Shown here: positions 3,001-6,000 of the stretch, piece by piece
How the letters are laid out: every line of letters starts with the position of its first letter
How positions within the stretch are numbered: position 1 is the stretch's first letter
Made by a program: the position numbers
Origin: Sulfurospirillaceae bacterium
GTDB lineage: Bacteria > Campylobacterota > Campylobacteria > Campylobacterales > Sulfurospirillaceae
DNA: 64,000 bases
NCBI GenBank assembly: GCA_033723415.1
Contig: JAWVXD010000001.1
Coordinates: forward strand, 1-64,000
Reading direction: 5' to 3'

Positions 3001-6000
3001 TAGCTACAGTAAATCTTGCTAATTGACGCATGGTAAAATATTGTCCCAACTCACCACGGAAAACCGATCCAAAAAATCTTTCGAATGCAGCACCAATACT
3101 ATCTGCAGATGCATCGGTGATACTGACATTTTGTAATACTTTGACAATATCTTTTATTTTTCCATCGGATAGTTCAATCTTTACACCTTCAGGAAAAATT
3201 GTTCTATCATTTCTGCTAGCTTGTTCGAATAATTCATGTACTCTAGTTGCGACAGCAGCTGAAGTCTCATTAGTACCGACCTGGAATTTTCTAGGTGTAT
3301 TGTTTGGTGTTGTTCGTTCATCTTCTACTTTTGCAAAAAGCAGTTTGCTCCATTGGTCAAAAGCAGTTAAAGGGTCACGCTTACCGCCTGCCCATATAAT
3401 TGAATGAGCACGTTTTATTTTTATTTCAAGCTGTTTGGCAGTGACTGGTGCAATGTCATTATTCCCTGGTCCAGCTATATATGTGTATTCAGGTATGTTC
3501 CCATATTGTTCAGGAATGGCGTCTCGTGTTCCTTTATTGTTCTCTTGTCGCTCTTCAGCAGGATAATTCTTAACATCAAAGAATAAAGATTCTTCATACT
3601 CTTCATAAATGCCTATTTCAGTTCTTAATGAGTTTGAGTTGCCAAATAGTTGTTCAATTCCTTGTGTTCTATCGGCGTCCGATTGGCCAGCAGCTTTACA
3701 TTCAATAACTAAGTAAGGCGATTTACATGCATCGTCCTGGTAAATAACGATATCAGCTAAATCACTAGGTGTCCTGCGAGGAACCTTTACTTCAGTTTTT
3801 ATTCGATTAGTAGGATAACCTTTTTCTAAAACCAAAAAACTTATACAGAAAGCTCTTACCCATTCTTCCGGATCTGACCATGTATAACTTTTTTTTTGAC
3901 GAATATGATAAGTTACACGGTCACCTTTAATTTCAACAATACCACGTGAAATGGCTTTTATAATATGGTCATTATTTTCTGCTTCAGCCTTAGAATACAT
4001 ATGGCTCCTATTTTTTTAGAGTATTATACTCTAAAAAAATAGAAATGAATCAAAAAAATGTATATTTTGACATATGAAAGAAGATTTTAAAATGAGACTA
4101 ACGTTTGTCGTGAGCGATAATTTTCCCGCAGGGTAAATTATTGCGTTTCCACGAATTTGTTATGTTTTGAATGTGAAGCTTTTTTAATAGTTCCAATGGA
4201 AATCTCCATCTATTATATTTTTATCAATTAATATTTGTCTTATTTTTTTGAAGTCTTCATTGCTGACAGGAAATAAATCAATCACAAAAAACCAATAAGT
4301 TTTCCATTTATTTTCCTTTTCCCAAAACATTAAACTTCCGCCAAAAAGTCTTTTTGAAACAGTTGTCTCCATTTTTGAATAACTTAGTGTTCTTTTATAA
4401 ACTTTTCCAAATATACTTGATTCTTTTATTATTTCATTTTCATAAAAAATCAAACTTTTAAAGCATAATAGATTCAAAAAACAGAAAACAGAAAATGTAA
4501 CTAGTAGTATTCCAAAAAAATTTGCAAAGTAATTATTTACTACTAAAAATAAAAACAACCCAACTGGTAGACCAAACAATAACCATACAAGTAACATATA
4601 TATTCTTCCCAAAGGATTATATTCTATTCTTAGTAGTTCATTCATCGTTTTCCTATTCTTACCTAATATTGAACATAACGGGGCGCGGGTGAGTGACTGC
4701 CGTTGGTAAACCTTTAGGTTTTCCAATGGCAGTTTGCTCCTCCCGCTTGTTATCTGGTGCGAAGCTCCGGATGCGTAGCGTCCGAGATAACGTTTAAAAT
4801 GAGCCAATAAATTGCCCGCAGGGTAATTTATTGGCTCCACTGACTTGTTATGCATGTTCATCTCGTCCATACCGACCATATAAATATTCTTCTGTATCAA
4901 CAACTAATGAATGTTCCGTGACTTCGACCATATTGGGGTCTTCAACTGGACTAAACAATGAACAAGTGAATGAAAATGTTTCTCTGCCTACGTGACCAAT
5001 ATCACGACGTAAATCAGAATTTGAACCCCATTGCATTTCACTACCAATAATACCGCTTGCATGAAAAATGACATTTTTATTGTTTATTTCATGAATCTTA
5101 ATGTTATCAGTGTAAACTTCATCAATAAAATGATGTGAACATAATACATCAATTTCTTGAATAGTATCTAGTAAAACTTCATCAATTGTGGTATTTTGTA
5201 TCTGTTCCCATAAATTTGAAATAATCATTTCTCGACACTCATCAATAAGGATTAAAAAATTGAAGACAGCTTCAATAGTTTCAGTAACAAAGGTATCCAC
5301 TTCTTCGTTCGGCAAATCAAAACTCTTTGGTTCAATATGTGTATATTTACTGAGCTTATTTATAGCATTATTGAGTTTTTTGTGAATTGCTTTTACATCG
5401 AGATCAAGGGTATCGTTTATGTACGAATCAGTTAATCCACCTTGAACAGCGTAATATGATCTTTGTTTTCTAGTAATTCCATTTTCATTAGGTGTTTCAT
5501 TTTTATACCAAGAACATTGTAAAACGCAATCATCAGGAGCAAGGCGTTTAAGAATATGTCTTGTTAATTCACGCATGGCATATGCAAAATTATTGAGTCG
5601 TAATGAATTTTCAGTATCTTCAAGGTTTTGTAAACATGCATCAAAAAGTTTATTTTCAAACTCACTTTTCAAGTCAGATTTTATTTTTTCAATCATATGG
5701 TTCCATTCCTTGTGCATAACGGGGCGCGGGTGAGTGACTGCCGTTGGTAAACCTTTAGGTTTTCCAATGGCAGTTTGCTCCTCCCGCTTGTTATCTGGTG
5801 CGAAGCTCCGGATGACTAGCGGGTGTTCAGCCCGCGCCCCGTTATCTTGGATGCGTAGCGTCCGAGATAACGTTTAAAATGAGCAATCAAAAAGCCGCCC
5901 GCGGGTTTTTGATTGGTCTCCTTTGGTTTGTTAACCTCTTTTATTTATATGAGGCCTCAGCCATTTTTCGAACTTATCAATCGCTTGATTTATTTCGGGA

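Follow-up and report, generated by a model that had tools for sequence, protein, structure and literature searches.

Each copy of a G+C-rich, branched palindrome (hereafter the module) that recurs at cassette junctions of a Sulfurospirillaceae genome is probably a gene-less, attC-only integron mini-cassette of ~155 nt, moved by the integrase on the folded bottom strand and accumulating especially at attI. An integron cassette is normally a gene together with its attC; here, an attC-like site of ~133 nt would be accompanied by roughly 15-20 nt of content, the loop of a small hairpin. A preliminary description of this DNA had favoured a second, long attC that makes each copy a multiplied cassette of ~150 nt without ORF, and this main reading agreed with every test that could be applied, being supported by crossovers at both ends, independence of the neighbours, covariation of the core sites and the strand that folds.

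Anatomy of the focal unit and its copies in the genome

The window, that is the whole stretch of 64,000 nt analysed at the start of contig C1, holds module copies at 5718-5843, 6586-6712, 7588-7709 and 4674-4804, and further copies lie beyond it on the same contig near 84,009, 305,697 and 309,508. All seven are in a single orientation, as described before, and all are within three cassette arrays, each at a cassette junction, with no copy outside the arrays in the 2.43 Mb genome. Three copies are intact (5718, 6586 and 305,697), two bear deletions between short direct repeats (4674 and 84,009), and two are degenerate (7588 and 309,508), both heading arrays and damaged in their 5' part. The earlier characterization of the 4674 copy as internally deleted and of the 84,009 copy as reduced to its closing stem proved accurate, whereas two other statements had to be corrected: the position directly behind an ordinary attC, assigned to all seven copies, applies to five, since 7588 and 309,508 stand at an array start behind a common AT-rich leader of 130 nt, and the G+C content, given as 65-70%, is 57-59% in the three full window copies and 53% in the deleted one, in a window of 34%. 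An Rfam search of the region with E up to 10 returned an unrelated best match at E 3.2, and no integron integrase was found in this genome (reported as 100% complete), both in line with what had been stated; the copies in this integrase-less genome are relics.

The cassette genes of the region are on the window - strand, and on this strand a junction reads ordinary attC, GTT (site A), 31-nt hairpin, module, GTT (site B) and next ORF, with 8-25 nt between site B and the ribosome-binding site of that ORF. Within the module, in - strand order, a closing stem of 10 G-C pairs encloses the conserved hairpin HP1 and the variable hairpin HP2, linked by conserved junction strands. The unit also includes the 31-nt hairpin at 5841-5871, which separates the module from the upstream crossover; the preliminary description had therefore made the unit too short. 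The features of the focal unit and its surroundings are as follows.

5866..5936, - strand: ordinary attC of the upstream cassette with the 210-aa ORF (nhmmer profile from local attCs, E 7.5e-16)
5871-5869, - strand: site A, the upstream crossover, which is the core GTT of attC 5866..5936 (sequence)
5841..5871, - strand: small hairpin formed by the cassette 5' end (GTTATC onwards) and the module-opening inverse core (up to GATAAC) (folds, covariation)
5716..5848, - strand: long attC-like site of ~133 nt, with the inverse core at 5841-5848 and the core GTTAT at 5720-5716 (sequence, folds, alignments; flanks diverge after GTT in relatives)
5720/5719, - strand: site B, the downstream crossover G/TT (flanks in relatives diverge past GTT)
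5721..5730 and 5831..5840, no strand assigned: arms of the closing stem, 10 uninterrupted G-C pairs adjoining the core sites (folds)
5738..5773, + strand: variable hairpin HP2, forming helix 2 together with 3 to 6 foot pairs (5732-5737/5774-5779)
5783..5823, + strand: conserved hairpin HP1 with the second pair of core-site-like boxes (folds, alignments)
5824..5830, + strand: conserved unpaired junction strand, TGTTCAG on + and CTGAACA in gene sense (invariant alignment columns)
4848..5717, - strand: ORF of 289 aa with pPIWI-associated nuclease domains, in the cassette that immediately follows the focal module
4786..4855, - strand: ordinary attC of the cassette with pPIWI-nuclease domains (profile of local attCs)
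6735..6803, - strand: ordinary attC of the 257-aa cassette (profile of local attCs)
6584..6740, - strand: second intact copy, small hairpin plus module, between attC 6735-6803 and ORF 5931-6563
7577..7742, - strand: array-leading copy, its 5' closing arm shortened and mismatched
4674..4804, - strand: internally deleted copy, lacking the small hairpin's 3' arm, the closing stem's 5' arm and half of HP1
7742..7870, - strand: AT-rich leader that heads the array, with a TATAAT-like box and ending in AATAAATA

The whole content of the mini-cassette is the loop of the small hairpin 5841..5871. In front of the array-leading copy 7577..7742 there is a different hairpin (7710-7742), and its upstream core is ATT, not GTT. 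The leader 7742..7870 is 94% identical to that of the array at 309,652-309,778; arrays 1 and 3 have only this 130-nt leader in common, and array 2 starts with such a leader and no module. In relatives the AATAAATA motif lies 250-300 nt from intI. As a side observation, a RAYT-like gene at window positions 455-1114 of the same array is inserted into a related module remnant.

On the window + strand HP1 is continuous except for one T-T mismatch, with two G·T wobbles in a run of nine pairs, and on the gene-sense strand it is broken by mismatches, including two C·A at the positions of these wobbles. In 33 of 36 copies, the box in the 3' arm of HP1 is identical to the inverse core box of the module. 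From this identity, together with the pairing of the inverse core and the 5' end, it follows that the four attC boxes are present in their usual order, spread over a branched fold. The junction motif CTGAAC is shared with two related module families, M2 and G059-first, and a fourth type (L110) has GGAAC in its place.

By sequence the module does not resemble the local attCs: a profile of eight of them found 12 sites with nhmmer at E 1.4e-6 or better, none inside a module, and the weaker matches (E 0.027 to 5.8) likewise avoided the modules. This weighs little, because attCs are defined by structure. Canonical attCs need an unpaired central spacer and extrahelical (bulged) bases between the R and L boxes, and the module has neither, as 10-11 perfect G-C pairs adjoin its core sites, which is the chief reservation about the mini-cassette reading; its unpaired bases are confined to the three-way junction, and its L-like boxes are in a side hairpin, far from the first pair.

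Crossover boundaries, fold and folding strand

Both ends of the unit are crossover sites. Near-identical modules are followed by unrelated sequence immediately past the GTT of site B, and at site A the module is joined to many different attCs or to the attI/promoter leader. Moreover, the same cassette was found with and without it: the cassette after the module at locus L095 is the one that follows a plain attC at L034 (89% identity, homology starting from the base after the G), and L056 versus L084 is a second such pair. The module consequently does not represent a 5' untranslated region that belongs to the following gene, and the genes downstream of its copies are unrelated to each other. 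In genome G009, a different gene-less module follows a focal-family module at one place and a plain attC at another. Additionally, three contigs of this genome have the leader and the start of the module in common, two of which (C42 and C3) continue past it and diverge right after the downstream core. What is bounded in this way is a discrete unit, independent of its neighbours and free of a protein-coding frame, as expected of a gene-less cassette.

In the aligned copies AAC and GTT flank the closing stem. If the unit is read as a circle, the inverse core is exactly complementary to the 7-8 nt that follow the G at site A, as expected if both were one core site in a circular cassette. The 5' bases at site A and the inverse core are 9-20 nt apart and paired, and the small hairpin exists because the first bases of the cassette, TTATC..., which would stem from its own core site in the circle, lie only a few bases from the complementary inverse core.

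Open frames are present in 24 of 37 copies, which is the rate expected for this G+C content (~0.6 per copy by our own estimate), and a small ORF in the module on either strand was rejected; the copies vary in length by 1-2 nt, and their length differences are not multiples of three. A crude scan, whose model does not include Campylobacterota promoters, gave no sigma-70-like promoter match in or beside the module copies, and a terminator scan gave one match, inside the module on the + strand, with 2.6 expected by chance.

The closing stem with two hairpins, as previously described, was recovered in the folds. The 231-nt stretch 5700-5930, which comprises the module, the small hairpin and the adjoining attC, reached z-scores of -6.8 (gene-sense strand, folded as RNA) and -11.8 (window + strand, folded as DNA), and in both cases none of 200 shuffles folded as well. 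For covariation and strand tests, 37 full copies were aligned in sense and complementary strand versions. The consensus structure has 55 pairs, with 97.2% of 2032 cells paired and 29 pairs changed on both sides, although cell counts overstate the independent events since the copies are related by descent. None of 500 shuffles reached any of the five measures, and slid controls were 36-48% paired. Both-side changes are few in the closing stem (helix 1; 2 pairs, 97.6% of cells paired) and affect 17 of 19 pairs in helix 2, i.e. HP2 with its foot (97.2% paired), and 7 of 12 pairs in helices 4 and 5, the small hairpin (99.5% and 94.1% paired). Helix 4, which represents the core-site pairing, accounts for four changed pairs out of six, and the arms of the small hairpin covary through four box types. 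A hammerhead-like three-way ribozyme was also considered and dropped by eye, the junction strands lacking the core known for it and no Rfam ribozyme matching.

Regarding the strand, the consensus fold as RNA amounts to -83.4 kcal/mol on the complementary strand versus -45.1 on the sense strand, and as DNA to -43.0 versus -16.4 kcal/mol; in single-copy folds the complementary strand was more stable in 37 out of 37. Furthermore, G·T cells on the complementary strand, which read A·C in the sense direction, number 160, and cells of the converse type number 9; this count was made on a structure derived from the bottom strand and is therefore tilted towards that strand. Among 60 distinct ordinary attCs of the same loci, used as control, 45 fold better on the complementary strand, with 29 G·T versus 4. 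Mutational bias may contribute to the G·T excess, although a low-power check of the unpaired columns on the + strand (C>T 13 versus G>A 27) gave no matching C>T excess. Like the ordinary attCs of the same arrays, the module thus folds on the strand complementary to the genes, be the molecule DNA or RNA; attCs recombine as folded bottom strands.

These results bear on two RNA-based explanations. The first, raised as the alternative in the preliminary description, is a leader RNA, in which the module folds in the array transcript and controls the stability or translation of the next cassette. The module precedes the ribosome-binding site of the next ORF by 8-25 nt and, in leader contexts, is located just downstream of a TATAAT-type promoter, its sense strand still folds well (mean -79 kcal/mol), and attC hairpins in mRNA have been reported to affect translation. 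Yet the sense strand folds less well in all 37 copies and has A·C mismatches in the 160 cells that are G·T on its complement, there is no relationship among the downstream genes, one and the same gene is found with and without the module, and no Rfam family matches. The crossover boundaries, the core-site covariation and the better fold of the complementary strand disfavour this explanation, which we regard as improbable. The second, a non-coding RNA or terminator read from the strand opposite to the genes, would agree with the better-folding strand being antisense and with a T-rich run that follows the small hairpin on that strand in leader contexts. However, the scan described above revealed no promoter-like site for it in or beside the module, the run is not T-rich in attC contexts, and ordinary attCs, which are not RNA genes, have this strand bias as well, so that an antisense transcript appears very improbable.

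Spread through Campylobacterota and position relative to intI

Homologous copies in Sulfurospirillaceae had been noted before, and we found the module in 6 of 60 other genomes of this family at 75-86% identity. A pattern scan with one genome per species yielded 70 stretches, corresponding to 65 distinct matches, of which seven are chance matches in unrelated G+C-rich genomes. The remaining 58 represent copies of the module, in records assigned to Sulfurimonas, Sulfurovum, Sulfurospirillum and related names and, in a few cases, in small contigs binned elsewhere. By BLAST, the module is present in 30 of 401 sampled genomes of the order, and it is conserved across bacterial families at 75-90% identity. 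These ~58 copies in Sulfurimonas, Sulfurovum and Sulfurospirillum are new here; a literature search at the level of titles and abstracts, supplements not included, did not retrieve a description of the element. In contigs from four DNA runs, breaks coincide with the repeats, and both attCs and modules were seen again in other samples; none of the contig joints was informative. An apparent link of one attC subtype with the module in genome G000 was discarded, this subtype being simply frequent in relatives.

Within the 401-genome sample intI is present in 78 genomes, namely in 19 of 29 module carriers versus 59 of 371 non-carriers. This enrichment is relevant for a further explanation, a REP- or MITE-like palindrome moved by a Y1 transposase of the IS200/RAYT type, such as the product of the gene at 455-1114. 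Y1 transposases act on strand-specific DNA hairpins too, and that gene shares the array, where it sits within the related module remnant. Nevertheless, the enrichment of carriers for intI, the coincidence of the module ends with integron core sites and the restriction of the copies to cassette junctions (7 of 7, and 0 elsewhere in 2.43 Mb) leave hardly any room for movement by such a transposase.

The position within the arrays could be classified for 47 copies, of which 30 immediately follow a leader with a TATAAT box and a terminal AATAAATA (29 scored by script, and L051 added by eye) and 17 are behind an attC. At eight loci a full intI is divergently oriented beside the leader, with the pattern match at locus position 3001 lying ~350 nt and site A ~250 nt from the intI start, by arithmetic from the positions. 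Because these eight loci raised the suspicion of a platform role, 30 intI loci chosen regardless of the module were examined; 7 end too early to tell, leaving 23 informative ones. In 14 of these, an ordinary cassette comes right after AATAAATA and its adjoining GTT, and in nine a structured gene-less module comes first, belonging to the focal family in one or two cases, to the M2 family in five and to two further types in one case each. Site A is accordingly the attI crossover, as ordinary cassettes follow the same motif at intI loci. An obligatory platform or part of attI was rejected in view of the 14 informative loci without a module and the many internal copies. Taken together, the module is optional, but the first cassette is very often a module of this build. 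The build, which combines a small hairpin with a G+C-rich closing stem and a branched core, recurs in at least three further module families.

The frequent first position is also the main argument for a docking cassette, i.e. a module kept beside attI as a stable folded recipient, so that cassettes enter and leave by attC x attC instead of attI x attC recombination and units of gene, attC and module move together. This possibility is compatible with the cassette reading and differs from it by the claimed benefit. It is consistent with the 30 of 47 classifiable copies directly after the attI leader, though there is one such place per array, with gene-less modules of at least four families in first place at 9 of 23 informative intI loci, with the G009 contigs that share leader and module start and of which C42 and C3 diverge past the downstream core, and with the alternation of module, gene and attC at window positions 4674-7742, which fits composite units. 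On the other hand, 14 of the 23 informative loci do without a module, as does the start of array 2 in this genome, many copies are internal to arrays, and, attI being the usual entry point of cassettes, a cassette that often moves would come first as well. Overall, we consider docking unlikely. Conservation across families and the frequent first position could nevertheless reflect a host function, not selfishness. A broader and still doubtful extension is that Campylobacterota integrons harbour a superfamily of attC-only mini-cassettes (at least four families), hyper-mobile parasites co-opted to provide a folded docking site next to attI, occupying the first slot in ~40% of integrons and altering cassette capture, excision and expression.

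Proposed mechanism, significance and comparison with known systems

In the mini-cassette reading, which we consider probable, the single-stranded complement of the genes would fold into the three-way junction with the paired core sites at its foot, and the G+C-rich stems would make this fold very stable in an A+T-rich genome. The integron integrase would then cut the core (G/TT on the coding strand) and join it to attI or to another attC, presumably via a circular cassette as intermediate, and by such cutting and joining the mini-cassette would be able to excise, re-insert beside attI and multiply. Without a gene, it would most likely persist as a selfish passenger of the integron.

If this is true, a conserved, horizontally spread and nearly attC-only cassette would represent a minimal mobile unit of the integron system and a natural experiment on what makes sites recombine well. 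The module breaks the rules of model attCs (no spacer, a perfect G-C stem and a three-way junction), and thus either extends these rules or points to a different use. In addition, the module often separates the cassette promoter from the first gene, which bears on expression and cassette turnover in a large and little-studied group of environmental integrons. On the practical side, the repeat breaks assemblies ~300-430 nt from intI and would confuse cassette callers.

With attCs in general the module shares the complementarity of the terminal AAC and GTT, the G/TT crossover with unrelated flanks and the bottom-strand hairpin. Among the closest known sites are the Vibrio cholerae repeats, long attC sites of ~125 nt with a branched terminal structure. 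Like these, the module has core sites at its ends, is an imperfect palindrome over 120 nt, folds on the complementary strand and crosses over at G/TT; unlike these, it has no spacer or bulges by the cores, a perfect G-C stem of 10-11 bp leads into a three-way junction, the second pair of boxes is in a side hairpin, and the site has no attached gene. The module resembles attI in being often first after the promoter leader and in having cassettes joined at its downstream core, but 14 of 23 informative integrase loci have no module, copies are also located deep within arrays, and the real attI crossover is the GTT after AATAAATA, upstream of the module. As in REP/REPIN and MITE elements, the sequence is short, non-coding, G+C-rich, structured and multi-copy, whereas its copies have core sites as borders, keep to cassette junctions and go together with intI instead of being dispersed between genes. 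A riboswitch-like leader RNA would be a sense-strand structure upstream of a constant gene family, which is not what we observed.

Gene-less cassettes are known from Vibrionaceae superintegrons (PMC11014356) and from an oral metagenome (PMC6557892), and they have content besides the attC, most acting as sense-strand promoters. Compared with these cassettes, the mini-cassette is likewise bounded by crossovers, placed in an array, devoid of a gene, present in multiple copies and located upstream of ordinary cassettes. It differs from them in that its content is a loop of 10-20 nt, with no promoter-like match in our crude scan, and in that it has 57-59% G+C in a 34% genome and is conserved across several bacterial families.

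Structured gene-less modules of further families

Besides the focal module, the long, branched attC-like cassette present in seven copies on contig C1, we identified a second family of structured gene-less modules, M2, which is about 200 nt long, carries a small hairpin of its own and also differs from the focal module in its G+C-rich closing stem. In 5 of the 23 informative integrase (intI) loci an M2 module occupies the first cassette position. Copies of M2 lie as follows:

Directly after attI in the compared loci L117, L116, L111, L101 and L105
L032:7900-8150
L016

Two more module types were found, one shared by L130 and genome G059, the other in L110. 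In the window, an M2 remnant appears to have received a transposase gene by insertion:

455-1114, minus strand, IS200/RAYT-like Y1 transposase gene, 219 aa (Pfam Y1_Tnp)
1115-1298 and 420-454, flanks of this gene

The protein matches the NCBIfam REP-associated tyrosine transposase model with a score below the cut-off, and 12-nt inverted repeats lie on both sides of the gene. Intact counterparts of this remnant occur in G044 (L032 near 7971) and in L117.

intI-attI regions and array leaders

Comparing loci L101-L130 together with an order-wide intI table, we observed that the intergenic stretches between intI and attI have several elements in common throughout the order. These are a terminal motif (TTGAATAAATA, then GTT), a TATAAT box approximately 10-15 nt upstream of it, and inverted repeats of the TTAACA...TGTTAA kind. 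Contigs bearing intI stop 300-430 nt from the start of that gene in many draft genomes, a pattern suggestive of an assembly broken by a repeat at this point. Three attI/promoter-like leaders, each heading one cassette array, are present here:

Window 7742-7870
C1:309652-309778
C1 near 86021

Two of them are 94% identical, and the flanks upstream of these two are unrelated. Despite the three leader-headed arrays, this genome, reported as 100% complete, contains no integron integrase.

Further cassettes and an apparently mosaic attC

The left and right arms of the attC at C1:305847-305919 do not pair and its right arm belongs to the common subtype; the site resembles a hybrid of two attCs. Two cassette proteins were also noted:

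Window 4848-5717, minus strand, protein combining the two pPIWI-associating nuclease domains (PF18165, PF18166); no Argonaute gene lies beside its cassette
Window 1298-4000, minus strand, 900-aa ORF with N6 DNA-methylase, Eco57I-type and HSDR_N domains

The latter lies within the array with attC-like sites on either side, is of unusual size for a cassette, and encodes a type IIG-like restriction-modification enzyme.
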